From positions 1 through 28,235 of IMG/VR virus record IMGVR_UViG_3300043410_000565: a stretch of 28,235 bases of DNA, one strand, 5' to 3'. A model generated the notes under the pieces. The model was not told the origin of the DNA and did no database searches. It saw nothing but the letters and a program-made list of their open reading frames with translations. The position numbers and the translations under genes are program-made. The first letter of the stretch is position 1, and each line of letters starts with the position of its first letter. Of this stretch, positions 12,312 to 24,918 are shown in pieces. This DNA is from a virus (lineage: Duplodnaviria > Heunggongvirae > Uroviricota > Caudoviricetes).

Positions 12312-12341
12312 AAATATTTGATAAAAAAAGTCAAAAAAGAC

Positions 12342-12381
12342 TTGACTTTTAATCAAACCTGTGGTATAATTCTTATAAATA
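12342..12381 (+). promoter_or_regulatory. early promoter followed by a late promoter
   Basis: TTGACT-17 nt-TATAAT (12342-12370) and TATAAATA (12374-12381). Confidence 0.75.
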
Positions 12382-12427
12382 GTTCTACTGGAGTTGAAAG
12401 ACTCTGGTAGAAAATTCTAAAAATCGC

Positions 12428-12456
12428 TTTACTTTTATTAGGAAATAAGGTATAAT
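12428..12456 (+). promoter_or_regulatory. promoter for the leader peptide
   Basis: AAATCGC-TTTACT-17 nt-TATAAT. Confidence 0.75.
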
Positions 12457-12462
12457 TCTTCT

Positions 12463-12603
12463 ATGAACTCGATAATGTTAAATTCCAGATTGCATAAACA
12501 GCTTCCGCAAGTAGCTGCATGGAATTGCACACACCCAGAGTTTACAGAAGGCTCAGGATATGCGATTGAAAGCGATACTGGGGGTTTTGGTAAGTTGATG
12601 TAA
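12463..12603 (+). CDS. putative attenuator leader peptide (46 aa, leaderless)
   Basis: MNSIMLNSRLHKQLPQVAAWNCTHPEFTEGSGYAIESDTGGFGKLM*; ATG 7 nt after the -10 box; 3' end overlaps the antiterminator arm. Confidence 0.65.
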   Translation: MNSIMLNSRLHKQLPQVAAWNCTHPEFTEGSGYAIESDTGGFGKLM

Positions 12604-12626
12604 CGATACGTCTAACTTCTATTTAC

Positions 12627-12665
12627 CAAAACCCCGAAGATGAAAATCTCGGGGTTTTTGTTTTT
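12627..12665 (+). terminator. intrinsic terminator with a competing antiterminator
   Basis: AAAACCCCG-A-AGAT-GAAA-ATCT-CGGGGTTTT then T-tract; the left arm also pairs with 12581-12593. Confidence 0.85.
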
Positions 12666-12681
12666 AGCGATCAAAAATCGC

Positions 12682-12710
12682 TTGACTTAAATTAAGAACT
12701 GCGTTATAAT
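12682..12710 (+). promoter_or_regulatory. promoter upstream of the tRNA array
   Basis: AAATCGC-TTGACT-17 nt-TATAAT. Confidence 0.75.
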
Positions 12711-12791
12711 ACGTGTTCTGATGTTCTTTAAAAATCTGGACTTTGTTTAAAAAGTTGTCAGCGTTGGTTCGCTGATGCTGACAACTTCTGT

Positions 12792-12865
12792 TCCTCCATG
12801 GTGTAATGGTAACACAACGGGCTTTGAACTCGTTATCATTGGTTCGATTCCAATTGGGGGTGCCA
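12792..12865 (+). tRNA. tRNA-Gln(TTG)
   Basis: Cloverleaf; ACGGG-CT TTG AA-CTCGT; CCA. Confidence 0.9.
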
Positions 12866-12968
12866 AACAAAAACACATTATCTAACCTGTAGTGCGGTCA
12901 CAGGGCATCGTAAGGTGTGGTAGCCGTGATAGTGTGCTTTTGTTTGGTTCATATAACAGGAGAAAGAA

Positions 12969-13115
12969 ATGAAACGAAAACAAATGGCTGCTCCTCGTGA
13001 ACGTAATCAGTTCGTGGCTGCAGCCCTATTCCGAAAAGCGGGTGCCCACTGTAAATCCAACAAGGCAGTCCGTCGTAAACAAAAAATGGATGTCTTAAAA
13101 GGGTTTGTAGTTTAA
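12969..13115 (+). CDS. small basic protein (48 aa), weakly ArfA-like; stop codon inside tRNA-Lys
   Basis: AGGAG SD; MKRKQMAAPRERNQFVAAALFRKAGAHCKSNKAVRRK... Confidence 0.6.
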   Translation: MKRKQMAAPRERNQFVAAALFRKAGAHCKSNKAVRRKQKMDVLKGFVV

Positions 13116-13177
13116 CGGCAAAAACATCTGGCTTTTAACCAGTAAGACTCTCGGTTCGAATCCGAGCAGACCCACCA
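13101..13177 (+). tRNA. tRNA-Lys(TTT)
   Basis: CTGG-CT TTT AA-CCAG; TTCGAAT T-loop; CCA. Confidence 0.9.
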
Positions 13178-13189
13178 AAAGTTCTTAGG

Positions 13190-13263
13190 GGTGGGCATAG
13201 TGTAGTGGAAGCACCCGACTCTGTGAAAGTCGTAGTATGGGATCGTTACCCATTGTTCACCCC
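13190..13263 (+). tRNA. tRNA-His(GTG), G-1, CCA not fully encoded
   Basis: CGACT-CT GTG AA-AGTCG; ATCGTTA T-loop. Confidence 0.8.
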
Positions 13264-13274
13264 TAAGAATTTTT

Positions 13275-13350
13275 GCCGATGTAGCTCAGTTGGTAGAGCA
13301 GCGGATTGAAAATCCGTGTGTCACTGGTTCAAATCCAGTCTTCGGCACCA
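13275..13350 (+). tRNA. tRNA-Phe(GAA)
   Basis: Canonical cloverleaf; CCA. Confidence 0.95.
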
Positions 13351-13355
13351 AATAT

Positions 13356-13429
13356 TCCTTCATAGCTCAAAGGTAGAGCAATCGGCTGATAACCGATAGA
13401 CAGAGGATCGTTACCTCTTGAAGGAACCA
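13356..13429 (+). tRNA. tRNA-Ile(GAT)
   Basis: ATCGG-CT GAT AA-CCGAT; CCA. Confidence 0.9.
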
Positions 13430-13440
13430 AATTAGACCGT

Positions 13441-13561
13441 TAGAATCGTTACAGCAATTTTAAATAATCTTTCTGGAAAAAAGAGGGTCTGGGTTCGAAT
13501 CCCAGCGCTGAGTTGGTCTTCAGTGTGGTGTAATGGTAGCACGATAAAAGCGATTCTGTTA
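13441..13561 (+). ncRNA. Y-RNA-like element 1 (permuted tRNA mimic, GGA loop)
   Basis: Stem AGAATCG/CGATTCT plus CAGCAA; interior order anticodon arm, T arm, closed acceptor, D arm. Confidence 0.75.
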
Positions 13562-13563
13562 TT

Positions 13564-13638
13564 GGTGATATGGCGTAGATGGATGCGCACTGGCTTCATA
13601 AGCCAAGGAGAGTGGATCGATACCACTTATCACCACCA
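13564..13638 (+). tRNA. tRNA-Met(CAT)
   Basis: TGGC-TT CAT AA-GCCA; CCA; Met versus Ile2 not certain. Confidence 0.8.
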
Positions 13639-13646
13639 AAGATTTT

Positions 13647-13738
13647 GGAGAGTAATGCAGCTGCGTTGGTGCGGCGACCAGCCTTGAAAACTGGGTTCTC
13701 AGAAATGGGATGGGGTTCGACTCCTCTGCTCTCCGCCA
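13647..13738 (+). tRNA. tRNA-Ser(TGA), 8/4 non-canonical fold
   Basis: CT TGA AA loop; long variable arm; G73; 8-bp acceptor and 4-bp T stem. Confidence 0.8.
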
Positions 13739-13850
13739 AAATATTCGGCGTAATTAACCGATAGTAAACACTAACAGATGCTGGGTCATCATGTCTGTTT
13801 AAGCTGATAAAGCTAGTGGGGTATAAGTCCCTAATGTGCCTCGATATTTT

Positions 13851-13925
13851 GCCCTTGTAGTATAATGGCTATTACAGTTGCCTTGTAAGCATCAAAATGC
13901 GGTTCAATTCCGTACTGGGGCACCA
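13851..13925 (+). tRNA. tRNA-Thr(TGT)
   Basis: CT TGT AA loop; GCC start; CCA. Confidence 0.85.
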
Positions 13926-13929
13926 ATTT

Positions 13930-14000
13930 TAGGATGAGTTCTGCAACACACAAGAACACCAAACTTTTAATTTGACCTGTTCGTCAAAATCATCCTGTTG
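13930..14000 (+). ncRNA. Y-RNA-like element 2 (Lys TTT anticodon-like hairpin)
   Basis: Stem AGGATGA/TCATCCT plus CTGCAA and GTTG; CAAA-CT TTT AA-TTTG. Confidence 0.7.
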
Positions 14001-14005
14001 TATAT

Positions 14006-14080
14006 GTACCATTAGACTTCTGGTGAGGTCATCACCCTTTCAAGGTGACTAGACGGGATCGTAACCCGTATGGTACTCCA
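14006..14080 (+). tRNA. tRNA-Glu(TTC)
   Basis: TCACC-CT TTC AA-GGTGA; CCA. Confidence 0.88.
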
Positions 14081-14177
14081 AGGCAAATAGTAATCTTGTT
14101 TTGATGCATGGTTACTCAACGTTTGTTAGTTTAGATGGGTGCTATCAAAACTAATGCAAGGAAGGAAACTTCTTTGC

Positions 14178-14253
14178 TCCGTAGAATCCAAGCAAGGTGC
14201 AAGGACTTGACTGTTAATCAATGATTAGACTGGTTCGATCCCAGTGTACGGAG
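14178..14253 (+). tRNA. atypical tRNA-Asn(GTT)-like gene, no CCA
   Basis: TTGA-CT GTT AA-TCAA; normal T arm; large D loop; extended acceptor. Confidence 0.65.
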
Positions 14254-14267
14254 CAAAGCAGTTTTAT

Positions 14268-14341
14268 CAGGGAATAGGATAGTGGTAGTCGACGAGTCTT
14301 GGATACTCGAGGTGGGAGTTCGATTCTCCCTTCCCTGACCA
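14268..14341 (+). tRNA. tRNA-Pro(TGG)
   Basis: CGAGT-CT TGG AT-ACTCG; CCA. Confidence 0.88.
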
Positions 14342-14351
14342 CAGAATTATT

Positions 14352-14426
14352 GGGGGCAGTAGTGGGCTACGGCTCTCCCTTGCAAGGAGGGTGTCTAGAA
14401 GGATTCGATTTCCTCGGTCTCCACCA
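14352..14426 (+). tRNA. atypical tRNA-Ala(TGC)
   Basis: CTCC-CT TGC AA-GGAG; G3:U70; reduced D arm; CCA. Confidence 0.7.
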
Positions 14427-14432
14427 ATATAT

Positions 14433-14507
14433 GCGTTGTAAACTTTGATGGTGAAGCCTCGGCTCTTAACCGATGTGAAGACAGTTCGAATCTGTCACGA
14501 CGCACCA
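14433..14507 (+). tRNA. tRNA-Lys(CTT)
   Basis: TCGG-CT CTT AA-CCGA; CCA. Confidence 0.88.
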
Positions 14508-14512
14508 AGTTT

Positions 14513-14617
14513 TAGGTTAGTTACAGCAAAAATTAATGCACTGTCAATGGTTGACAATTTCACTTTCAATGAAACGTTTGTGGGTTCGATCCCCACTGCA
14601 AAACAACTAGCCTGTTG
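14513..14617 (+). ncRNA. Y-RNA-like element 3 (internal tRNA-Glu-like cloverleaf)
   Basis: Stem AGGTTAGTT/AACTAGCCT plus CAGCAA; D-like arm, TTTCA-CT TTC AA-TGAAA, T arm GTGGG-TTCGATC-CCCAC. Confidence 0.75.
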
Positions 14618-14623
14618 AATTAT

Positions 14624-14700
14624 GTCCCTTTAGCATAACTGGAGAATGTACCGTCCTACGAAGTCGGGCGATGCAGGTTCGAATCCTGTGGGGGACGCCA
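14624..14700 (+). tRNA. tRNA-Arg(ACG)
   Basis: CT ACG AA loop; CCA. Confidence 0.88.
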
Positions 14701-14705
14701 AGTTT

Positions 14706-14897
14706 TAGGATCCTTTCAGCAACATAAAATGCAATGAAAGCCTCGTGTCGGTGGTGCAAATCCACCCTTCTCCACTGAGTGTATCAGTGAGTGTGAGTCA
14801 CTTTAAACATAGCCAGAGGACGCTCAGGAGTTCGGCTGGTATATTCAGTGGAGAAGTAGCTCAGTTAGTAGAGCAGAGTTAAAAGCGGATCCTGTTG
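14706..14897 (+). ncRNA. Y-RNA-like element 4 (circularly permuted tRNA-Phe-like)
   Basis: Stem AGGATCC/GGATCCT plus CAGCAA; tRNA 3' half (14735-14774) precedes the 5' half (14850-14880). Confidence 0.8.
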
Positions 14898-14902
14898 ATT
14901 AT

Positions 14903-14992
14903 GGAGATATGGTCGAGTCTGGTTTATGGCACCTGTCTAGAAAACAGGCAACCCGAAAGGGTTCGTGGGTTCAAATCCTACTATCTCCGCCA
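14903..14992 (+). tRNA. tRNA-Ser(AGA)
   Basis: CCTGT-CT AGA AA-ACAGG; long variable arm; G73; CCA. Confidence 0.9.
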
Positions 14993-14996
14993 GTTT

Positions 14997-15092
14997 TAGG
15001 TTATTTGCAGCAAAACAAAATTCATAGGTTCGACTCCTATATTACTCACCAAAATCCGAGTGATTGCATGGCGCAAACAAGATAACCTGTTG
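14997..15092 (+). ncRNA. Y-RNA-like element 5 (T arm, closed acceptor, D-like arm)
   Basis: Stem AGGTTAT/ATAACCT plus CAGCAA; ATAGG-TTCGACT-CCTAT then ATTACTC/GAGTGAT. Confidence 0.75.
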
Positions 15093-15117
15093 TATTTTAA
15101 ATGAAAGAGGTGATACT

Positions 15118-15687
15118 ATGCCAAGTGTATTTTTAGTAAGCGATACGCACTTTGGTCACGCTGGTGTATGTAAATTCACCGAAGCAGACGGAGTGACAAA
15201 AATCCGACCGTGGACTGATCCAGAAGAAATGGATGAAGCCATGGTCAAGATGTGGAACGAAACAGTCAAGCCGACTGATAAAGTTTACCACTTAGGTGAC
15301 GTTGTCATTAACCGCAAGGCATTAAAGATTATGCATCGGTTGAACGGTGACAAGGTTTTAATTAAGGGCAACCACGATATCTTTAGATTAGAGGAATATA
15401 CTCCATTCTTCAGAGACATTCGAGGGAGCCACGTGATGAACGGTATGATTTTAACTCATATCCCAGTTCATGAATCTAACTTGTATCGTTTCGGTACTAA
15501 CATCCACGGTCACACTCATACCAATCGCGTTATGATGACTGATCAATACGGTGTTACTCGAATCGACCCTCGTTACCAATGTGTCTGTGTTGAACAGACA
15601 GATTTTAGACCAATCTTATTTGAAGACGTAATTAAGCGTATCAAAGAAGAAGGTGGATCAGTCGGTTTCAAGAACGGTAACTATTAA
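15118..15687 (+). CDS. calcineurin-like metallophosphoesterase
   Basis: SDTHFGH, LGD, GNHD and HGHTH motifs; GAGGTG SD before ATG 15118. Confidence 0.9.
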   Translation: MPSVFLVSDTHFGHAGVCKFTEADGVTKIRPWTDPEEMDEAMVKMWNETVKPTDKVYHLGDVVINRKALKIMHRLNGDKVLIKGNHDIFRLEEYTPFFRDIRGSHVMNGMILTHIPVHESNLYRFGTNIHGHTHTNRVMMTDQYGVTRIDPRYQCVCVEQTDFRPILFEDVIKRIKEEGGSVGFKNGNY

Positions 15688-15688
15688 T

Positions 15689-15778
15689 GGAGAGTGGGCA
15701 GGACGGTAATGCAGCAGTTTGCTAAACTGTAGATCTCAGGAATGGGGTCAGTGGGTTCGATTCCCACACTCTCCGCCA
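15689..15778 (+). tRNA. tRNA-Ser(GCT)
   Basis: TT GCT AA loop; long variable arm; CCA. Confidence 0.9.
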
Positions 15779-15784
15779 ATTGTC

Positions 15785-15859
15785 GGGCTGATAGCTTAAT
15801 GGTAAAGCAGCCGACTCATAATCGGTTGAGTCTGAGTTCAATTCTCAGTCAGCCCACCA
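15785..15859 (+). tRNA. tRNA(CAT), probably Ile2 (lysidine type)
   Basis: GCCGA-CT CAT AA-TCGGT resembles the bacterial Ile2 anticodon arm. Confidence 0.8.
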
Positions 15860-15929
15860 AGTTGTGTTGCAACTAATCTGGGGTGCTTGCGTTCTCGCCC
15901 AGTTAAAATGCCAAATAATACGCAGCCAT

Positions 15930-16006
15930 GCGGATGTGACGGAATTGGTATACGTGCTAGACTCAAAATCTAGATTCTGCGAGTTCGAGTCTCGCCATCC
16001 GTACCA
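15930..16006 (+). tRNA. tRNA-Leu(CAA), short variable loop
   Basis: CTAGA-CT CAA AA-TCTAG; Leu-type D arm; CCA. Confidence 0.88.
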
Positions 16007-16012
16007 GATAAT

Positions 16013-16086
16013 GTAGGTGGAGCCAGATGGTCGGGCACTGGATTGCAAACCCATGGAAGCAGGTTCGATTCCTGTCACCTACTCCA
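16013..16086 (+). tRNA. tRNA-Cys(GCA)
   Basis: TT GCA AA loop; U73; CCA. Confidence 0.85.
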
Positions 16087-16116
16087 AAAATATTTGATAA
16101 AATAGTCAAAAATCGC

Positions 16117-16145
16117 TTTACTTTTATTCAGAGTTAAGGTATAAT
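16117..16145 (+). promoter_or_regulatory. internal promoter of the tRNA array
   Basis: AAATCGC-TTTACT-17 nt-TATAAT. Confidence 0.75.
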
Positions 16146-16165
16146 TAATGTAATGAGTTGATAAT

Positions 16166-16252
16166 GCGAGAATGGTGGAATGGTATACGCATCGGGCTTA
16201 AAACCCGACGTCTGTAATGGGCATGCGGGTTCGAGTCCCGCTTCTCGCACCA
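16166..16252 (+). tRNA. tRNA-Leu(TAA)
   Basis: TCGGG-CT TAA AA-CCCGA; long variable arm. Confidence 0.92.
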
Positions 16253-16255
16253 AAT

Positions 16256-16331
16256 GTCCCGTTAGCTCAGTGGATAGAGCATCGGTCTTCTACACCGTGG
16301 GTCGGGAGTTCGAATCTCTCACGGGACGCCA
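16256..16331 (+). tRNA. tRNA-Arg(TCT)
   Basis: CT TCT AC loop; CCA. Confidence 0.92.
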
Positions 16332-16341
16332 AAAATAAAAC

Positions 16342-16370
16342 TTGACTTTTAATCAAGTTTGTAGTATAAT
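16342..16370 (+). promoter_or_regulatory. internal promoter
   Basis: TTGACT-17 nt-TATAAT. Confidence 0.75.
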
Positions 16371-16510
16371 TAATGTTGTTAAGTTAGTTCTTAAAGACCT
16401 TTCTAAGTCACTACGTGGAGTCGGGTGCGTAAGGCAATTTTAGGGGAATCGCTGGAAGAGTGATTCGGTTAGAGTTGCGTTGGGATAGTTAGGGGCAGAC
16501 TCTACAATTT

Positions 16511-16586
16511 GCACGATTCGTCTATCGGTTTAGGACACCAGCCTTTCACGTTGGTAAGACGGGTTCGATTCCCGTATCGTGTACCA
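16511..16586 (+). tRNA. tRNA-Glu(TTC), second copy
   Basis: CCAGC-CT TTC AC-GTTGG; CCA. Confidence 0.9.
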
Positions 16587-16690
16587 TATCAAAACGCATT
16601 GATGACAGTTAAACGGATAAGCAGGAATTTATTCCTCCGTGTTATACAGAAGGCTTTGTATGACGGTCAATGCGTTTTGATATGGTATAG

Positions 16691-16917
16691 ATTTTATACA
16701 CATGACACTTCAATGTCAGCAAGAGAAAGACACTAAATTCGAGTAGATGGCCATCGAAAGATTTAGTAGAGCACAGTCGGCGTGATTCCGTGCAAAACTA
16801 AGAATCTGTGGTTGAGTATCCCAAGTGACGTACCGAGTCCGTGCAGCTGCTTTAACGATGCGGTGAATGGTATCAATAACGATGGTGATACATTTGAGGT
16901 TGTCAGTTGTATAAAAT
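16691..16917 (+). ncRNA. unknown ~225-nt structured RNA
   Basis: Long interrupted terminal stem ATTTTATACA..TGACA.CTTCAATGT / ACATTTGAGG.TGTCA..TGTATAAAAT; internal hairpins; no plausible ORF. Confidence 0.55.
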
Positions 16918-16973
16918 TTAATGGAAGCGGATTAGAAATCTGCTTTTTACTAAATAAGTAAAAAGGAGATAAT

Positions 16974-17414
16974 ATGAAGCAACAGAAAAACAAATTTACG
17001 GATCAAGAAGTAATTGATGCGTATAATGAAGAAAAACATTTAGGTAAACTCGCAGTAAAATTCAAAGTTCCCCATATTCAAATGTGGAGAGTTTGTAAGA
17101 AACTAGGGTTGAGTTTTGGTAATGGTGGTGGAGCAAAAACTAAAATACCTCTTGAAGAGATTTTAGCAGGTGACCATCCTTATTATCAAACTCTAAAACT
17201 TAAAAGAAGATTGATCAAAGAAGGTATCTTAGAGAATAAATGTTCTTGTTGTGGTATAACTGAATGGCAAGGTAGAGAAATCGTGCAACAATTAGACCAT
17301 ATTAATGGAGATTCTTCTGATCATAGAAAAGATAATTTAAGATTACTATGTCCAAACTGTCATTCTCAGACTGACACTTGGTGTGGTAAACAAAATGGAT
17401 GCTTAGTCCCGTAA
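16974..17414 (+). CDS. HNH endonuclease (free-standing, homing type)
   Basis: CSCC...LDHINGDSSDHRKDNLRLLCPNCH; AT-rich; AGGAG SD. Confidence 0.9.
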   Translation: MKQQKNKFTDQEVIDAYNEEKHLGKLAVKFKVPHIQMWRVCKKLGLSFGNGGGAKTKIPLEEILAGDHPYYQTLKLKRRLIKEGILENKCSCCGITEWQGREIVQQLDHINGDSSDHRKDNLRLLCPNCHSQTDTWCGKQNGCLVP

Positions 17415-17483
17415 TGGTATCGGGGGTAGACTGTAAATCTATTGGCTCAGCCCTTCTCTGTTCGAATCGGAGAGCATCCACCA
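17397..17483 (+). tRNA. tRNA-Tyr(GTA)
   Basis: TAGA-CT GTA AA-TCTA; variable arm; CCA. Confidence 0.88.
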
Positions 17484-17489
17484 AAATTT

Positions 17490-17564
17490 GGTCTCAAAGT
17501 GTTCATGGACGCACGCATGCCTGTCACGCATGAAGAAGGGGATCGTTACCCCTTGGGACCGCCA
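17490..17564 (+). tRNA. tRNA-Asp(GTC)
   Basis: CATGC-CT GTC AC-GCATG; G73; CCA. Confidence 0.88.
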
Positions 17565-17568
17565 AATT

Positions 17569-17635
17569 TAGGATCCTTACCGCAAAACTAAAACATTTCA
17601 CTTTATGGCTGTGAAAAGCAAAGCGGATCCTGTTG
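17569..17635 (+). ncRNA. Y-RNA-like element 6 (minimal)
   Basis: Stem AGGATCC/GGATCCT plus CCGCAA and GTTG; single hairpin TTTCAC/GTGAAA. Confidence 0.7.
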
Positions 17636-17652
17636 TTTAAAATGGAGAAATT

Positions 17653-18408
17653 ATGTTAGTTTATCTTGGTAAGCATAAGAATTGGTTTGGACCATATCAA
17701 CTTGCTGATGCCCTATGTTTCTGGGTCAAAGAAGTTGAAGATGAATATGGTATAAAAGCGAAACCACAATGGGTTCATCATTTCGGTGAATGGCTCGCTC
17801 ATGGTGACATTGAACCTGAACATAAGGTTGGTGAGGTTTACCGTTGGAATAAACAAGAACGACATAAGACTTTGCTCTATCGGTTCTTGCTTTGGATTGA
17901 TAAACTGAAGGACAAGTTTCCTCGAGAGATTATCAAGATTGATCGTTGGGATAGTTGGAACATTGATTCCACTCTGTCGCCAATTATCCTTCCTCTGTTG
18001 AAACAGTTGAAGGAAACAAAGCACGGTTCGGCTCAGGTTGATCTGGAAGATGTTCCAGAAGAGTTGCGTGCTGAAGGTCATAGCGATTTTAGTGATCAAA
18101 AAACATTTGACTTTTATCGTGAAAACAACGATAATATAGATTATGAAATGGTACACAAACGTTGGGACTGGGTTCTTAACGAAATGATCTTTGCCTTTGA
18201 TCACTTGGTTGATCGAACTTGGGAAGATAAGTATCATAGTGGTGAACATGACATTACTTGGACTAGACTCGAGAATGGATGTTCACAAATGGGACATGGA
18301 CCAAACGACACATACAAATGTGACTACGATGGTCTGAATGAAGAATGGAAAAGAGTAGATAATGGTCTTAGATTGTTTGGAAAGTATTTCCGAAATCTCT
18401 GGGACTAA
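17653..18408 (+). CDS. hypothetical protein (Trp-rich)
   Basis: 251 aa; GGAG SD; ends GLRLFGKYFRNLWD. Confidence 0.8.
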   Translation: MLVYLGKHKNWFGPYQLADALCFWVKEVEDEYGIKAKPQWVHHFGEWLAHGDIEPEHKVGEVYRWNKQERHKTLLYRFLLWIDKLKDKFPREIIKIDRWDSWNIDSTLSPIILPLLKQLKETKHGSAQVDLEDVPEELRAEGHSDFSDQKTFDFYRENNDNIDYEMVHKRWDWVLNEMIFAFDHLVDRTWEDKYHSGEHDITWTRLENGCSQMGHGPNDTYKCDYDGLNEEWKRVDNGLRLFGKYFRNLWD

Positions 18409-18417
18409 ATAGAAAAT

Positions 18418-18492
18418 GCCTCGTTAACTCAGCGGTAGAGTAACTCCCTTACAAGGAGAAGGTCGGCGGTTCAATCCCGTCACGAGGTACCA
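18418..18492 (+). tRNA. tRNA-Val(TAC)
   Basis: CTCC-CT TAC AA-GGAG; CCA. Confidence 0.92.
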
Positions 18493-18499
18493 GAATTAT

Positions 18500-18575
18500 A
18501 GCGGGTTAGAGAAACGGCATCTCATCAGTCTCATAAGCTGAAGACACCTGGTTCGACTCCAGGACTCCGCTTCCA
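18500..18575 (+). tRNA. tRNA-Met(CAT), initiator-like body with a bulged acceptor
   Basis: TCAG(T)-CT CAT AA-(G)CTGA; lacks the three G-C anticodon pairs; CCA. Confidence 0.75.
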
Positions 18576-18579
18576 AATT

Positions 18580-18647
18580 TAGAATCGGTTCAGCAAATAA
18601 AATGCATTCAACTTGTAATTGAAAAAAGCAAAAAAACGATTCTGTTG
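18580..18647 (+). ncRNA. Y-RNA-like element 7 (Thr TGT anticodon-like hairpin)
   Basis: Stem AGAATCG/CGATTCT plus CAGCAA and GTTG; TTCAA-CT TGT AA-TTGAA. Confidence 0.72.
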
Positions 18648-18664
18648 TATTAAAGGAATAAATT

Positions 18665-18856
18665 ATGGATATGGATCAGGCAGCGGTATTTTTCGCTGGT
18701 TCAGTTTTGACAGCACTTGGATTTTTGATCTGGGTTGGCTTTGTACTTTTGGTTAATAACCTTGTACACAAATACTGGAAGAGTTGGGGTTGGTCATGGA
18801 ATGTTATTAACCCTCAACCTGTTCGATTCATGAATGAAGAAGAATTGAAGAAATAA
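18665..18856 (+). CDS. small membrane protein
   Basis: One long hydrophobic helix; AAGGA SD. Confidence 0.7.
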   Translation: MDMDQAAVFFAGSVLTALGFLIWVGFVLLVNNLVHKYWKSWGWSWNVINPQPVRFMNEEELKK

Positions 18857-18857
18857 T

Positions 18858-18934
<77 letters not shown>

Positions 18935-18960
18935 AAATTCGTACTATATAGAAGTACAAT

Positions 18961-19037
18961 GCGGATGTGATGGAATTGGTATACGTGTTGGTCTTAGAAG
19001 CCAAATTTTGTGAGTTCGAGTCTCACCATCCGCACCA
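18961..19037 (+). tRNA. tRNA-Leu(TAG), short variable loop
   Basis: TTGGT-CT TAG AA-GCCAA; paralogous to Leu(CAA). Confidence 0.88.
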
Positions 19038-19060
19038 ATTAATTTTATGGAGATTCATTA

Positions 19061-19300
19061 ATGCGTAGAGATAAACGACGTAAGTCTTTTGGTTTGACTG
19101 TTATCGTTGAAGATGGTAAATTTGAAAAAGCAATGCGCTTGTTCAAGAAGAAGGTTGACGACTCTGGATTGTTGAAAGAGGTTCGTGACCGTGAAGCCTA
19201 TGTTAAACCGACTATCCGTCGCAAACTTGCCAAGAATGCTGCTCGTAAGCGTTGGGCAAAGTATCTTGAATCACAAACATTGCCCACAAAGCAATATTAA
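19061..19300 (+). CDS. rpsU: ribosomal protein bS21 homolog
   Basis: FEKAMRLFKKKV..SGLLKEVRDREAYVKPT.RRK..K.AARKR signature. Confidence 0.9.
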   Translation: MRRDKRRKSFGLTVIVEDGKFEKAMRLFKKKVDDSGLLKEVRDREAYVKPTIRRKLAKNAARKRWAKYLESQTLPTKQY

Positions 19301-19309
19301 AAAGATTAT

Positions 19310-19384
19310 TCCAGAGTAGCACAGCGGTAGTGCAGTTGACTGTTAATCAATTGGTCGTAGGTTCGATCCCTGCCTCTGGAGCCA
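19310..19384 (+). tRNA. tRNA-Asn(GTT)
   Basis: Canonical; CT GTT AA loop; CCA. Confidence 0.93.
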
Positions 19385-19397
19385 ATAAGGAGAGTAA

Positions 19398-20204
19398 ATG
19401 GCAGTAAAACAGGTTTGTCCTGATGTGGCATTCCCTTCATTTGATCATCTATTCAACCAGTTGAAAGGGTTGAAGTTGTCATTTGATCCAAACTGGCCAA
19501 GTTTACCAACGATGCCATCTCCGATGTTTCCGAACATTAAGATGCCTGAGTGGCAGACTACTAATCTAGCATTTAACATTTCTGTTAATCAAATGCTAAA
19601 GTGGTTTGAGATGATCTTTGCTAAACTGTCGTCATTCTTGGGTTCTGTATTTACTTTTCCAGATATTCCGCATATCAACCTGAAGTTACCAGACCTGTTT
19701 AATTTTAGCGGTGAGACTGATTGGGCTGCGATTTTCGCAAAGATTCCAAGTCTAAAATTACCGTCATTGCCAGATCCGTTGCTTCCAAATATGCATATGC
19801 CTGAGTTTGAGAGTTTAATTAAATTTCAGGCATTGATTTTAAATTACATGTCATCATTGATGGACTCGTTGATTGGGTTGTTACAATCAGTGATCAATAA
19901 ACTGAACATCAAACCTTTCTCATTAGGTTTGTCTATGCCTTCGTTTCCTGATCCATTGTTTCCTTTCGACTTTGAATCGTTAATGTTGAACATGCCTTCG
20001 CTACCGTCGTTGCCAGACCCATTGTTTGGTAACTTTAAAAACCCTTCAATGGAGTGGTTGGAAAGAGGTAAGAATTACTTCCTTCACTTACTTGGGTTGA
20101 TTGGTAAGACGATTGATGATTTTGTGGCATCTATTGCGAATTGGATTGGTGGTTGGACTCCACCATTGATTTGTTTTGGTGTACCTATAACAGTAGAAAC
20201 TTAA
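19398..20204 (+). CDS. Pro/Leu/Phe-rich repeat protein
   Basis: Three repeats of LPSLPDPL(F/L)PN..MPE(W/F); AGGAG SD. Confidence 0.75.
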   Translation: MAVKQVCPDVAFPSFDHLFNQLKGLKLSFDPNWPSLPTMPSPMFPNIKMPEWQTTNLAFNISVNQMLKWFEMIFAKLSSFLGSVFTFPDIPHINLKLPDLFNFSGETDWAAIFAKIPSLKLPSLPDPLLPNMHMPEFESLIKFQALILNYMSSLMDSLIGLLQSVINKLNIKPFSLGLSMPSFPDPLFPFDFESLMLNMPSLPSLPDPLFGNFKNPSMEWLERGKNYFLHLLGLIGKTIDDFVASIANWIGGWTPPLICFGVPITVET

Positions 20205-20215
20205 TTGAGGATATT

Positions 20216-20485
20216 ATGACATTTGAACCATTAGGCAAACGTGTTTACATTGCTGAAGTAAAAACAGAAAAGAAGACAGCATCGGGTATTATCCTAGAAG
20301 GTGCTAACTCTATTCGTGAAACTAAGTTTGCCGAAGTTTTGGCTGTTGGTTATGACGTTAAGAAAGTTCGTGTTGGTCAACGTATCGTTTTGGATTGGTC
20401 GAAGTGTTTCCCAGTCAAGGTTGGTGACGTTGAACGTGCAGTGATTGATGAGGATCATATCCTCGGTACATACTGCGACGAATAA
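20216..20485 (+). CDS. groES: GroES-like co-chaperonin
   Basis: FEPLGKRV, EKKTASGIIL, VLAVG and IDEDHILG motifs; true start ATG 20216. Confidence 0.85.
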   Translation: MTFEPLGKRVYIAEVKTEKKTASGIILEGANSIRETKFAEVLAVGYDVKKVRVGQRIVLDWSKCFPVKVGDVERAVIDEDHILGTYCDE

Positions 20486-20492
20486 AGGATTT

Positions 20493-20568
20493 GCCCTTTT
20501 AGCTCAGTTGGTAGAGCAGCACATTAGTAATGTGAAGGTCGCGTGTTCGAATCATGCAAGGGGCACCA
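20493..20568 (+). tRNA. tRNA-Thr(AGT)
   Basis: CACA-TT AGT AA-TGTG; GCC start; CCA. Confidence 0.9.
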
Positions 20569-20573
20569 AAATT

Positions 20574-21113
20574 ATGAAGCTAATTGATTTCATTCAAACA
20601 TTTGATGGCGTTCTATCGCCAGAAACATGTAAGTTGATCATTGATCAATTTGAAGCAAATAAAGAAATAACAGAGAAACATGATACAGACTTGTATAAGT
20701 TTGATCAATTGAATCTCAATAAGACTGAAGGTTTATCAGAACTTGCTCAGGTTGTTGCGAATAATCTAGTCTCAGTCTATGATGATTATTTTAAATCGTT
20801 GCAGTTGAGTGAATATGTTAGCATTGAATCGTTTGAAGACATTCGTATCAAGAAGTATGCAAAAGGCTCTGGCGCTGAATTCAAAACTCACGTTGATGTA
20901 GCTGATAAAGCATCTGCTTCTAGGTTTTGTATTGCTATCATCTATCTTAATGATAATGATGGTCTTACTACTTTCCCGACACTTGGTGTTGGTGTAAAAC
21001 CTAAAGCTGGTCGTGTTGTAGTATTTCCTCCAACGTGGATGTTTCCACATAATGGATTACCGCCAACTGACAACGATAAGTACATTATGATGACATGTTT
21101 GCATTATAAGTAG
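20574..21113 (+). CDS. 2OG-Fe(II) oxygenase (prolyl-4-hydroxylase-like)
   Basis: HVD, IIYLND, FPP.W.FPH and KYI motifs; start after the tRNA at ATG 20574; ends in TAG. Confidence 0.88.
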   Translation: MKLIDFIQTFDGVLSPETCKLIIDQFEANKEITEKHDTDLYKFDQLNLNKTEGLSELAQVVANNLVSVYDDYFKSLQLSEYVSIESFEDIRIKKYAKGSGAEFKTHVDVADKASASRFCIAIIYLNDNDGLTTFPTLGVGVKPKAGRVVVFPPTWMFPHNGLPPTDNDKYIMMTCLHYK

Positions 21114-21132
21114 GAGAAGGATATGGGTTCAG

Positions 21133-21348
21133 ATGGTAGCTAAAAATGATATCACTGGAGATGCAATCCAGTCTAAAGGAAATTCTAGGGCATATCAAGA
21201 GAATCTCGAAAAGATTTTCGGTGATAAGTCTGAAGAGAAAGAAAGAAAAGCCAGAGAAAAGGCTGAGTATTTTGCTCGGTTAAATGCCGAGTATGAGGAT
21301 AGAGTTACTCGTAACAACGAGGAAACTCAACAAGTAATGAGTCGCTAG
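21133..21348 (+). CDS. hypothetical protein; TAG stop inside tRNA-Trp
   Basis: KNDITGD.IQSK...Y.EN..KIFG motif. Confidence 0.7.
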   Translation: MVAKNDITGDAIQSKGNSRAYQENLEKIFGDKSEEKERKAREKAEYFARLNAEYEDRVTRNNEETQQVMSR

Positions 21349-21415
21349 TTCCAATTGGCAGAACGATGGTCTCCAAAACCATATGTTGGGGGTTCGAATC
21401 CCTCGCGGCTCGCCA
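21339..21415 (+). tRNA. tRNA-Trp(CCA)
   Basis: ATGGT-CT CCA AA-ACCAT; CCA. Confidence 0.9.
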
Positions 21416-21422
21416 AACAAAT

Positions 21423-21498
21423 GCGGGTATAGCTCAGCTGGTAGAGCACAACGTTGCCAACGTCGAGGTCGAGGGTTCGAATCCCTTTGCCCGCTCCA
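21423..21498 (+). tRNA. tRNA-Gly(GCC)
   Basis: TT GCC AA loop; U73; CCA. Confidence 0.93.
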
Positions 21499-21528
21499 AC
21501 TTTTTAATGAGGTAATAAAGGTGTAATC

Positions 21529-22011
21529 ATGAAAAAACTAAACATTGACGAAGTAAAAGCGTTCATTCAGGCACAAAGTCCAGAGACAAAGATCTACATC
21601 GGGGGTGATTCTGAACGATTCCTAATCGGCAATGATTGGTATGCGGATTACACACTTGCCGTTGTTGTTCATATTGACGGTAAACATGGTGCTAAGGTAT
21701 TCGGTGAAGTTCAAAGAGAACGTGACTGGGACCAAAAGAAAAACAGACCACGTATGCGTCTAATGAACGAAGTTTACAAAATCGCAGAATTGTACCAAAA
21801 GCTGCACGACGTATTAGAAGACAGAGATGTTCAAATTCACTTGGACATTAACCCTGATGAAAAGTACGGTTCAAGCTGCGTGGTGCAAGAAGCTGTGGGT
21901 TATATCCGTGGTATGTGTAACGTGATCCCAATGGTTAAGCCAAAGGCATTCGCTGCATCTTACTGCGCTGATAGATTGAAACATATCATGAGCCATCAGA
22001 AGGCTGCGTGA
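21529..22011 (+). CDS. RNase H-like YkuK (DUF458) family protein
   Basis: IYIGGDS, RLMNEV, IHLDIN and KP.AFAASYCAD motifs. Confidence 0.8.
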   Translation: MKKLNIDEVKAFIQAQSPETKIYIGGDSERFLIGNDWYADYTLAVVVHIDGKHGAKVFGEVQRERDWDQKKNRPRMRLMNEVYKIAELYQKLHDVLEDRDVQIHLDINPDEKYGSSCVVQEAVGYIRGMCNVIPMVKPKAFAASYCADRLKHIMSHQKAA

Positions 22012-22028
22012 TTGACTATATAATATAT

Positions 22029-22104
22029 GCTTCTATGGCAGAGTGGCTTATGCGACCGTCTCTAAAACGGGTGAAGGTGGGTTCAAATCCCACTAGGAGC
22101 ACCA
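22029..22104 (+). tRNA. amber suppressor tRNA (anticodon CTA)
   Basis: Full cloverleaf: GCTTCTA/TAGGAGC acceptor, CCGT-CT CTA AA-ACGG, GTGGG-TTCAAAT-CCCAC, A73, CCA. Confidence 0.88.
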
Positions 22105-22124
22105 AACTTTTGAAAGGATATGCA

Positions 22125-22160
22125 ATGGAGAAATTCTCAGCATAGATTCGACCACCGTAA
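22125..22160 (+). promoter_or_regulatory. amber-containing regulatory uORF MEKFSA(TAG)IRPP*
   Basis: GAAAGGA SD; ATG GAG AAA TTC TCA GCA TAG ATT CGA CCA CCG TAA. Confidence 0.6.
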
Positions 22161-22207
22161 GGTTCTTTTGTTTTATATTATGTCTATCAAATTTTAACAA
22201 AGGAATC
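22161..22207 (+). promoter_or_regulatory. SD-sequestering hairpin
   Basis: GGTTCTTTTGTT (22161-22172) pairs with AACAAAGGAATC (22196-22207), 12 bp including 2 G:U. Confidence 0.6.
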
Positions 22208-22211
22208 TATT

Positions 22212-22589
22212 ATGTGTATCGAACTAAAAATTAAATCTAAACATCTTGCTCTTGAGCCTTCTATTATTCGTTGTGAAGAAAGAAAACTCAAGAAGCGTAT
22301 GAAACATAACCGTGATGGCGAAACATCGTATTGGGAACTTGCTAGACAGCGAGATAACCTAATCCTTCATCGTCGTTGGAATGTGAGAAATGAATCTCGT
22401 GCCACTGAGTTGGCTCGTGCATATCTCGCTGGAAAACCTTATTCTCACGTTGAAAAGAAGCGTAAGGATGAGACAATGTTTCAGATGATGATCGTTCCTC
22501 GTATTGTTGCGATGGTTACCAAATATGGGACCAAAGAACAACGATCCGTTGATCGAAAAATTATTCAAGAATGGTCAAAAATCGCTTGA
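22212..22589 (+). CDS. basic hypothetical protein
   Basis: LKIK.K.LA.E..IIR.EE...HR...VR.ESRA..LA.AYL.G.PY..VE; AAGGA SD. Confidence 0.8.
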   Translation: MCIELKIKSKHLALEPSIIRCEERKLKKRMKHNRDGETSYWELARQRDNLILHRRWNVRNESRATELARAYLAGKPYSHVEKKRKDETMFQMMIVPRIVAMVTKYGTKEQRSVDRKIIQEWSKIA

Positions 22590-22614
22590 CTTTAATTCAG
22601 GAATAAGGTATAAT
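22586..22614 (+). promoter_or_regulatory. promoter for ncRNA element 8
   Basis: AAATCGC-TTGACT-17 nt-TATAAT. Confidence 0.8.
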
Positions 22615-22626
22615 TAATGTATGAAT

Positions 22627-22905
22627 TGGGATGAATACAGCATAGTAAACTACTATGACTAAAGAGTAGCCCACGCACAGGAGGAAACATCGTAAGGTGT
22701 CAATTTTGTGGGCTAGGTTGGAAAGACTATTGCATGCTCTTATGCCTCGTGAACCCTAGTAGGATTCAGATAGTTACACCCGAATGTGTACCAAGTTGCC
22801 GTAACTTGTACGGATATGCCAGTGAACTGGATGATTCTCGTGGGGTTTGCCGAAAGGGACACGATGGTTTAAGTAACTAAAATGATCAACCCGATCATCC
22901 CGTTG
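22627..22905 (+). ncRNA. Y-RNA-like element 8 (long, ~280 nt)
   Basis: Stem GGGATGA/TCATCCC plus CAGCAT and GTTG; internal stems with GNRA loops; own promoter. Confidence 0.7.
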
Positions 22906-22917
22906 TTTAAATTTTAC

Positions 22918-22946
22918 TTGACTTTAATTCAGAAGTCAGGTATAAT
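22918..22946 (+). promoter_or_regulatory. promoter for element 9 and the TROVE-like gene
   Basis: TTGACT-17 nt-TATAAT. Confidence 0.8.
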
Positions 22947-22959
22947 TGATGTATTGAGT

Positions 22960-23115
22960 AAGGTTAGGTTCAGCAAACCTAAAACTAGGTGGCAAATCTC
23001 CTCGGAGACTGCTACCACTACGCTGGCACGTGGATCTTTGATCCACCCGAAAGGGTTTGTGCGCCAAGAGTTTCGATTTCTCTTGTAAATCAAAAAGTAG
23101 GAAACTAACCTGTTG
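22960..23115 (+). ncRNA. Y-RNA-like element 9 (5' of the TROVE-like gene)
   Basis: Stem AGGTTAG/CTAACCT plus CAGCAA and GTTG; several internal hairpins. Confidence 0.72.
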
Positions 23116-23155
23116 TTTGACTTAGGCTTCGTTGCCTGTAATTGGAGATGTAAAT

Positions 23156-24592
23156 ATGAATACTTTTGTTTCAGCCGTTCAAAATCAAGAAGCACGCACT
23201 ACTAACGGCATGCGTGCCCGTAAGTCTACTGCCAATGCGTGCGTAGACCTTTTCTTCAAAATCGGAGCTTCACGTGGTAAAGACATTACCAAGGAATTCG
23301 TTGCAGCTTATGTTGAGAACCGTGAGATCGCTCTGCGTATCGCACAATGGGTTCGTGACGTTCGTGGTGGCGCAGGTGAACGTGAAATCTTCCGTCAAAT
23401 CCTAAAGTACCTAGACAAGCACCACCCAACTGATGCAGCTTTGCTGTTGATGAAAGTACCAGAAATTGGTCGTTGGGATGACATCTTTGTTGTAGAAAAC
23501 AAAGAGAACAAGTATAAGGCATTCGCCATGCTTGGTGACGCACTACGTGCTAAGAACGGCTTGGCTGCTAAGTGGACTCCTCGTAAGGGTGACTTGGCTG
23601 TTGAGATCCGTCAATTCTTCGGCATGTCGCCAAAGTTTTATCGTAAGTCCTTGGTTGAATTGACTAAGGTTGTTGAAACTGACATGTGTGCAAAGAACTG
23701 GGACTCGATTAACTTCAGCCATGTTCCATCTCTGGCTCACTCTCGTTACAAGAAGGCATTCTTCCGTAACACTCAAGAGTATGCCAAGTATGTTGCTGAA
23801 CTGACTAAGGATCCTAAGGATCGTACAGTTCAAGTCAAAATCAATGCAGGTGCGGTTTATCCATACGATGTGTTGAAGGGTGTTATCGGTTCTTACAACA
23901 AGAACTATAACGCAACTGAACTAGGTGCATTGCAAGCCCAATGGGATGCTATGGAAAACTTTGTTGGTGATGCTAACGTATTGCCACTGGTTGACGTATC
24001 AGGCTCAATGTCTTGCCGTGCTGGTGGCGCGAAGTCTACTTCTGCCACTACTTGTATGGATGTTGCAGTTTCTCTTGGTCTGTATATCGCAGACAAGAAC
24101 AAGGGTAAGTTCAAGGATACATTCCTAACTTTCTCTTCTTCTCCAGAGTTGCTGCACCTGAAGGGTAACATCGTTCAGAAGTGCCAACAAATGGTGCGTT
24201 CTAACTGGGGTATGTCTACTGACTTGGTTCGTGCCATGGATAAGATCCTGAGCGTTGCTAAGCAAGGTGGTGTACCACAAGAAGAAATGCCAGAAATGTT
24301 GTTGATCATGTCTGACATGCAATTCAACCAATGCGCTCGTTTCGACGACTCCGCAATGCAAATGATGGCACGTAAGTTTGAAGCAGCAGGATACGAACTG
24401 CCAAAGATCGTGTTCTGGAACCTAAACGCTGCGGACAATGTCCCAGTGAAGTACGATGCTTCGAACGTGGCATTGATCTCTGGTTTCAGTCCACAGATCA
24501 TGGTATCTGTTCTGGGTGGTGATACTGAAAAGTTCACCCCAGAAGCTATCATGATGAAAGCAATCGGTGTAGACCGATATGCTCTAGCCTAA
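23156..24592 (+). CDS. TROVE/Ro60-like protein with C-terminal vWA domain (DUF2828-type)
   Basis: RDVRGGAGER, GRWDD, AAKW.PR helical region; MIDAS DVSGSM, ST, SDMQF, IVFWNL; GGAG SD before ATG 23156. Confidence 0.8.
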   Translation: MNTFVSAVQNQEARTTNGMRARKSTANACVDLFFKIGASRGKDITKEFVAAYVENREIALRIAQWVRDVRGGAGEREIFRQILKYLDKHHPTDAALLLMKVPEIGRWDDIFVVENKENKYKAFAMLGDALRAKNGLAAKWTPRKGDLAVEIRQFFGMSPKFYRKSLVELTKVVETDMCAKNWDSINFSHVPSLAHSRYKKAFFRNTQEYAKYVAELTKDPKDRTVQVKINAGAVYPYDVLKGVIGSYNKNYNATELGALQAQWDAMENFVGDANVLPLVDVSGSMSCRAGGAKSTSATTCMDVAVSLGLYIADKNKGKFKDTFLTFSSSPELLHLKGNIVQKCQQMVRSNWGMSTDLVRAMDKILSVAKQGGVPQEEMPEMLLIMSDMQFNQCARFDDSAMQMMARKFEAAGYELPKIVFWNLNAADNVPVKYDASNVALISGFSPQIMVSVLGGDTEKFTPEAIMMKAIGVDRYALA

Positions 24593-24805
24593 TACCCTAG
24601 TCGCTTGGGGACGGGAAGCGTTGACTGGTGCGCTTAATCACCAGTCACCATAATGAAGTATATTCAACACGGAGTAAGGGTTCTGCAGAACAACTGCTTT
24701 GTGTGCCGCATGGTGACCAGCACCCAAGGTCGAAAAGTAGGGTATCCGTCTAGTATGTGCACAGGAAAAACGGAAACGCACGAATGTATTTCATTATGGT
24801 ATTAT

Positions 24806-24882
24806 GCGGGATTGGTGTTCAATGGTTAGCATGTGAGTCTTCCAAACTTGAGGTACGAGTTCGAATCTCGTATCCCGCTCCA
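24806..24882 (+). tRNA. tRNA-Gly(TCC)
   Basis: CT TCC AA loop; U73; CCA. Confidence 0.9.
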
Positions 24883-24918
24883 TAACTTTGACTTTGTTTT
24901 TATTTAAAAGGTGATTTG

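Follow-up and report, generated by a model that had tools for sequence, protein, structure and literature searches.

Locus and genome context

The analysed window, a viral DNA stretch of 28,235 nucleotides, comprises bases 1-28235 of a 160,850-bp genome from a freshwater-type phage with T4-like genes. Its capsid protein is approximately 64% identical to that of the nearest cultured phages, and sequencing runs containing parts of the leader region were mostly freshwater metagenomes, with small word shares. No host assignment was obtained by comparison of the bS21 protein. A short ORF (the leader) lies between promoter-like sites and an intrinsic terminator at the head of a long tRNA array (Table 1). 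A permuted tmRNA gene is located elsewhere in the genome (G000:C1 47007-47391).

Table 1. Features of the leader locus and tRNA array, in window coordinates.
Feature	Coordinates	Strand	Basis
Upstream early (sigma70-type) promoter-like site	12342..12370	+	11/12 consensus; belongs to the phage's repeated promoter family
T4-type late-promoter-like box TATAAATA	12374..12381	+	sequence
13-bp GAAA hairpin, 5' end of upstream/late transcript	12383..12412	+	-16.4 kcal/mol, z -4.95
Early promoter-like site, predicted leaderless transcript starting at or near ATG	12428..12456	+	promoter motif
Leader ORF, 46 codons, 20 amino acids	12463..12603	+	sequence; frame conservation
Predicted sensing segment, codons 1-38	12463..12576	+	folding model; no new amino acid after Asp38
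Small mid-ORF hairpin, candidate RNA-polymerase pause site	12499..12517	+	folding
Antiterminator 5' arm, encodes G-G-F-G-K, beyond the sensing window	12581..12593	+	exact complement, folding
Shared strand: antiterminator 3' arm and terminator 5' arm	12623..12635	+	exact complement, folding
Intrinsic terminator hairpin and U tract	12628..12664	+	-17.4 kcal/mol, compensatory stem variants
Bypass promoter-like site, 3' of terminator	12682..12710	+	promoter motif
tRNA array from tRNA-Gln(UUG), with bS21, GroES-like, DUF2828 and other genes and further promoters	12792..24882	+	ARAGORN, domain search

For the array, ARAGORN called 30 tRNA genes by default and 35 at a lowered threshold. An initial sequence-only reading of the window had described a complete tRNA set; this holds for 19 of 20 amino acids, tyrosine not being called. 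A tRNA-like sequence with a GTA anticodon (assigned by eye) is located at 17399-17481, after an HNH endonuclease gene; it was called by neither ARAGORN nor Rfam and is probably a tRNA-Tyr.

Several further elements lie in the array. Genes for bS21 and a GroES-like protein are found at 19061-19300 and 20141-20485, respectively. A tRNA with a CUA anticodon, a possible amber suppressor, is located at 22029-22104; CUA anticodons occurred in 6 of 28 arrays examined. Long-stem or multi-hairpin RNAs, some with tRNA-like arms, are predicted between tRNA genes (12863-12947, 13437-13558, 13931-13998 and 16582-16687) and gave no match in Rfam; similar elements were recognized by eye at 14510-14612, 14706-14896, 14997-15088 and 17570-17633. 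The array ends with a gene for a DUF2828/DUF7788 protein (23132-24592; PHROG 850, 'RNA-binding protein'), which adjoins tRNA arrays in several cultured phages too.

Promoter-like sites and predicted transcript start

Upstream of the leader, the box TATAAATA resembles the consensus of T4-type late promoters. An NTAAATA box was present 20-140 nt 5' of the ATG in 84 of 93 unique leaders, against approximately 0.045 expected per locus. A leaderless start, as proposed in the sequence-only reading, agrees with the promoter-like site and the position of the window's ATG, 6 nt after the -10 box. The spacing alone is weak evidence, because an ATG is likewise placed at 11 of 30 matches to the phage's promoter motif (counted by eye). 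In the family, a -10 box precedes the ATG by 6, 7 or 10 nt in 77/93 leaders, and AGGA or GGAG is present in 8 of the other 16. Elsewhere in the genome, promoters at G000:C1 3137, 44757, 49550 and 129689 have an ATG immediately 3', followed by apparent genes, which suggests a wider use of leaderless mRNAs by this phage.

The promoter-like site 3' of the terminator had raised the reservation that the switch may only boost expression. This applies to the window phage, but 29 of 74 loci lack a consensus promoter before the first tRNA, which there usually lies 50-54 nt away. The 74 loci are those with a tRNA within 700 nt, the window and near-duplicates included.

Content of the leader ORF

A recount gave 46 sense codons, 20 amino acids and 38 distinct codons, including four Gly codons, four Ser codons, both codons for Asn, His, Lys, Gln and Glu, and ATA and AGA, in full agreement with the first description. 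The expectation of 32-33 distinct codons by uniform sampling was likewise reproduced (null mean 32.5). Under this null, the probability was 0.011 for at least 38 codons, 0.024 for 20 amino acids and 0.001 for both jointly. Among 46-codon stretches of 11 long window genes (n = 3368), none had 38 distinct codons and 1.5% had 20 amino acids. These single-leader statistics, taken alone, are modest, the feature having been chosen post hoc. The 160,850-bp genome has 680 short ATG ORFs, among which only the leader ORF combined at least 19 amino-acid types with a terminator behind. It gave no match at threshold in Rfam, Pfam, PHROG or Atlas.

The count of 38 codons is true of the window leader but marks the upper end of the family (range 27-38, with 38 reached in 4/93); the family mean corresponds to z +1.3 against the uniform null. 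GGG, GGT and AAG of the window leader sit in the tail that is masked in the folding model, its second His codon replaces an Arg CGC present in 87 of 93 relatives, and it is without any CGN codon.

The leader region folds with z -3.6. The mid-ORF hairpin was more stable than in codon-shuffled folds in 28/28 family representatives (mean -6.6 kcal/mol, mean z -1.5; control segment z -0.1); in the clade to which the window belongs, it is weak (z -0.4).

Antiterminator and terminator

The end of the ORF is the exact 13-bp reverse complement of the left terminator arm, as first noted. In the window, the antiterminator hairpin (-26.8 kcal/mol) competes with the terminator (-17.4 kcal/mol), with 12628-12635 common to both, and this terminator was the only terminator-like site found by a scan of 12300-25200. 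By pattern, mutually exclusive antiterminator and intrinsic terminator on a shared strand were present at 186 of 202 loci, the arm core being fixed by the search pattern used for finding them. In members found by peptide alone (L101, L106-L109), both arms change together and the GFGK tail is lost. One antiterminator position has an A/C mismatch in 55/93 leaders.

In 87/93 leaders the antiterminator exceeds the terminator in stability, and ribosome-free folding gave the antiterminator in 93/93. An untranslated leader is therefore predicted to leave the array on. For folding under a stalled ribosome, a footprint extending to +11 from the P site was masked. The antiterminator then formed in 93/93 leaders for stalls at or before codon -3 (counted from the GGT of G-F-G) and in 0/93 for stalls at -2 to 0. 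This edge depends on the footprint value: with +13 and +15 masks it shifts to -4, and Asp is excluded. With the ribosome at the stop codon, 21-22 of the 93 leaders still folded the antiterminator.

The last new amino acid is encoded three codons before the GGT in 92/93 peptides and four codons before it in one. Where Asp has moved upstream, Tyr occupies codon -3. In the folding model, the claim that stalling at any codon would be sensed is restricted to codons 1-38, codons 39-46 falling outside the predicted sensing window.

A protector (1:2) hairpin of the trp/his type is absent; inside the ORF only a 4-bp consensus pair was found. With no conserved protector, absence of translation is predicted to cause readthrough, not superattenuation. 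The locus was also considered as a structured ncRNA or riboswitch; this was rejected, as the apparent three-way junction of the window is not conserved and Rfam gave no match. Rfam leader families (Trp, His, Leu and Thr leaders, T-box) remained below the gathering threshold, the best being His_leader with 20.5 bits on the minus and 14.9 on the plus strand, compared to a threshold of 49.

Conservation among relatives

Relatives were found by peptide-profile and DNA-pattern scans, which gave 201 loci, many of them the same contig twice. Together with the window, 202 loci were examined; the arm pair and the terminator arm were present in 186, and the set yielded 184 ORFs, 100 unique DNA sequences and 93 unique peptides. 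Eighteen loci were dropped: L070 and L071 are truncated, L089 is unrelated, and the other 15 were checked individually. Six of these are cut by contig ends, and L135 had been read on the wrong strand. Dropped loci L101, L102 and L106-L109 are six members with changed arms; in L108, the sole Val is located in the tail. L064 no longer has a terminator, and in L195 the frame is disrupted, by decay or assembly error. The leader of L184/L300 was called at the second ATG (34 instead of 41 codons).

The sequence-only reading had proposed checking whether related phages keep the codon diversity and pairing while the peptide drifts. The peptide does drift (median pairwise identity 49%, minimum 22%), with the frame, coverage of 19-20 amino acids, pairing and position before an array retained. 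Downstream of the leader, tRNA-Gln comes first in 58 of 62 loci, and the remaining four have at most 256 nt of downstream DNA; within 2.5 kb upstream, no tRNA gene was found in these loci. All 20 amino acids occur in 83 of the 100 unique leaders, 19 in the other 17 and fewer in none. Of the 93 peptides, 82% hold 20 amino acids, compared to 15% after column shuffling and 41% after swaps of halves; among 28 representatives with less than 70% identity, 22 do.

Several amino acids are present in exactly one copy in nearly all 93 peptides (Tyr 93, Asp 93, Trp 92, His 89, Cys 88), at varying positions. Cys is only N-terminal in 46 peptides, only in the middle in 42, at both places in one and absent from four. 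Position changes were counted on a tree built by a quick method from three genes next to the leader (57 rows, 64/77 loci). On well-supported branches, at least 6 changes were forced for Cys, 4 for His, 5 for Tyr and 6 for Gln, counts that recombination may have inflated.

DNA-anchored distances occurred in 8 and 4 length variants and kept a single frame in 91/91 and 90/90 cases; the arm-to-arm distance spanning the non-coding spacer took 11 lengths in all three residues modulo 3. The other reading frames are open in 3/93 and 0/93. Frame-preserving indels, closed alternative frames and leaderless or SD-led starts indicate that the leader ORF is likely under selection for translation. Going by the sequences, it is the presence of one codon for each amino acid and each split-box tRNA class that is conserved, not the codon count.

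Among 38 closer peptides, 13 columns are invariant, and the DNA of closer relatives is conserved at many synonymous sites. A profile search gave 19 matches, 18 short family-like proteins and one protein of 1712 aa; no known protein family was found for the leader peptide. Neither blastn nor tblastn gave cultured homologues of the window leader or of the L113 leader, and bacterial genomes gave one match, a 2,154-nt MAG contig. Contigs of relatives covered the leader in 4/4 RNA-library runs, such contigs showing neither strand nor level. Among four further runs, two, both not on record as RNA, covered the leader.

Codon choice and tRNA species

For codon choice before the arm, expected counts were derived from the window genome's codon usage applied to all relatives. 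AUA was present in 82/93 leaders (6.8 expected), AGA in 79/93 (31 expected) and AGY in 90/93 (61 expected), and both Leu boxes were represented in 93/93. The opposite was seen for Pro-CCY (7/93, 49 expected) and Thr-ACY (10/93, 78 expected). Leader and genome codon shares differed for UUU (1.00 vs 0.40), CAG (0.83 vs 0.28) and GAG (0.84 vs 0.28). The enrichment of AUA and AGA points to sensing of tRNA species, not of amino acids alone.

For the most part, leader codons correspond to the 25 anticodons shared by the arrays; Thr-AGU and Ser UCC are the two clear exceptions. A tRNA-Thr with the AGU anticodon is encoded in 23/28 arrays, and ACU or ACC occurs in 0/28 leaders; UCC is present in 27/28 leaders, with Ser-AGA and Ser-GGA tRNAs called 11 and 2 times only. 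In the window, this tRNA-Thr with its unusual anticodon is located at 20493-20568, and leaders avoid ACU/ACC before the arm. Leaders without Cys (L272, L280) or Val (L242, L304, L240) still precede tRNA-Cys or tRNA-Val genes, and amino acids missing from leaders showed no match to tRNAs missing from arrays.

Leaders in other phages

A sequence-independent scan for analogues covered 8 small viral loci and 6 stretches of cultured phages. At L018:700-882, an unrelated 38-codon leader with 20 amino-acid types, a competing helix and a terminator precedes a tRNA array and showed the same masking behaviour. In Vibrio phage nt-1 (HQ317393.2; L312:8916-9085), an unannotated ORF of 37 codons encodes 19 amino-acid types and is accompanied by a terminator and by an alternative helix at its stop codon; it lies approximately 90 nt before the main tRNA block. 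It matched 50 Vibrio phage records including KVP40. All seven leaders of this type that were examined have 18 or 19 types, are without Gly, Cys or both, and place the alternative helix at the stop codon.

In phage BUCT-ZZ01 (ON615601.1, UTS52160.1; L310:3504-3712), a 46-codon ORF with 19 types and a terminator lies approximately 670 nt before the first tRNA. No antiterminator folded under ribosome masks, and the ORF was set aside as an unconfirmed candidate. The stretches of DLP_6, RSP15, S13 and Ahp1 contained no convincing leader; that of Ahp1 may miss the array head.

Comparison with known systems

Leader-peptide transcription attenuators of amino-acid operons include trpL, hisL and pheL and the multivalent thrL and ilvL. 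The phage locus resembles these trp/his-type systems in its short ORF, an antiterminator over the ORF end, an intrinsic terminator and readthrough predicted upon stalling. Where those leaders have codon runs for 1-3 amino acids, it has one codon each for 19-20; it also differs in preceding tRNA genes of a phage and in being mostly leaderless. The tandem or enriched codons for 1-3 amino acids and the biosynthetic operon by which this type is recognized were not found; Cys, Tyr, Asp, His and Trp are single, and tRNA genes lie downstream. T-box riboswitches bind one uncharged tRNA directly, without a ribosome, and switch between terminator and antiterminator. They share with the mechanism proposed for the phage leader a terminator/antiterminator switch answering to tRNA status, but tRNA binding is ribosome-free there, and the phage leader gave no Rfam T-box match.

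For the toiL uORF of E. coli topAI, stalling at many positions has been proposed to relieve repression, making it a broad sensor of translation stress (PMC12121999). Stalling at many positions of one uORF as the proposed input is common to both; toiL frees a ribosome-binding site, with Rho-dependent termination and with antibiotics as inputs (PMC12121999), whereas the phage leader has an intrinsic terminator, all-amino-acid content and tRNA output. The Anabaena trn operon is likewise a spare set of tRNA genes, with induction upon impaired translation, but it is controlled by TrcR, a ribbon-helix-helix repressor (PMC8421152, PMC10272220); 'attenuat' and 'leader' are absent from the accessible text of PMC8421152. 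Mycobacterial polycysteine sORF attenuators, as far as described in the accessible part of the source, are also leaderless short ORFs acting as ribosome-stalling sensors at the operon head, but they respond to one amino acid, control a ribosome-binding site translationally and belong to chromosomal genes (10.1101/834739). Phage tRNAs have been described as a counter-defence against anticodon nucleases, a selective reason for a spare tRNA set; the accessible text describes no regulation of their expression, and 'attenuat' is absent from it (PMC10264068). In full-text searches covering few subscription papers, no publication on leader-peptide control of phage tRNA genes was found.

Proposed mechanism and alternative explanations

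The locus combines an ORF with two mutually exclusive predicted hairpins, and its frame, amino-acid coverage, pairing and position are conserved throughout the family. We consider it probable that this is a conserved, likely translated leader-peptide attenuator which gauges the whole aminoacyl-tRNA pool, with translation and switching predicted from sequence conservation. The core of the sequence-only reading (translated leader, ribosome-controlled switch, broad tRNA sensing and array output) is supported by this conservation.

In this mechanism, a ribosome would start at the leaderless AUG (SD-led in some lineages) and follow the polymerase. If it arrived in time at codons 39 to stop, it would cover the G-run 12580-12584 and the terminator would form. 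If it lagged within codons 1-38, or was never loaded, the stronger antiterminator would form. Shortage of any aminoacyl-tRNA would thus allow readthrough into the array, and tRNA production by the phage probably rises whenever ribosomes lack any tRNA. In the window phage, whose array has other promoters, the switch would act as a booster; where a lineage has no bypass promoter, it would act as the gate of the array. Since each codon is present in one copy, the response would be to severe loss of a single tRNA (e.g. by an anticodon nuclease) or to accumulated slowness, and less so to mild starvation. As triggers, cleaved and uncharged tRNA are indistinguishable from sequence.

The same attenuator might instead have been selected as a gauge of amino-acid starvation, for which the 20 amino acids matter and the tRNA species do not. 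Amino-acid coverage is indeed the strongest conserved trait, and the match of codons to arrays has exceptions. To a ribosome, moreover, uncharged and missing tRNAs are indistinguishable. Second codon classes, however, are far above expectation (AUA, AGA and AGY), and tRNA output would not be expected to cure a shortage of amino acids, which makes this explanation unlikely. Quite unlikely is a toiL-like general gauge of translation speed or ribosome availability, in which the codon mix would serve to be slow and average, not as a per-tRNA test. It would account for the avoidance of genome-preferred codons by the leaders (at UUU, CAG and GAG), for the antiterminator folded without a ribosome in all 93 leaders and for bS21 and GroES-like genes in the array, but it has no need for single Cys, Tyr, Asp, His and Trp codons that relocate within a window ending at codon -3. 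Sensing of translation speed is probably an added input to the attenuator rather than an alternative.

We regard as very unlikely that the locus makes a functional small peptide, or a small RNA ending at a plain terminator, with the alternative hairpin incidental. The invariant columns, synonymous-site conservation and folding z of the closer relatives and leader region would suit such a product. Against it, identity falls to 22% in the wider set, with composition kept and order not; the GFGK tail changes whenever both arms change; and neither a consensus fold inside the ORF nor a match at threshold in Rfam, Pfam, PHROG or Atlas was found. A chance ORF beside an ordinary terminator has a negligible probability: an ATG follows 11/30 promoter matches anyway and the feature was picked post hoc, but the family-wide conservation of frame, coverage and pairing and the single case among 680 short ORFs contradict it.

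For the whole-pool attenuator, a more specific reading is put forward tentatively, at somewhat less than even probability. Large phages may have repeatedly evolved a 'pangram' leader that polls each tRNA species once with wobble-read codons, so that loss of any tRNA to a defence nuclease would call up a full replacement set. As part of this reading, the design would occur in unrelated sequence families, among them those of nt-1 and KVP40, two cultured Vibrio phages. It is conceivable, though we would not quite favour it, that defence nucleases act as the main trigger. If true, a single cis element would respond to an entire class of anti-phage defences, whichever nuclease is involved.

Implications

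The cultured Vibrio phage analogues offer a laboratory route, and the leader could serve as a reporter for anticodon-nuclease defences and for loss of tRNA modification. The mechanism would widen attenuation, with its 1-3 sensed amino acids and biosynthetic target genes, to the entire genetic code and to tRNA genes as targets. It has long been asked why phages encode nearly complete tRNA sets. A whole-pool sensor would imply that such a set is an inducible safeguard against the loss of tRNAs and not just a constitutive compensation for codon usage, an idea directly testable with a 240-nt reporter.
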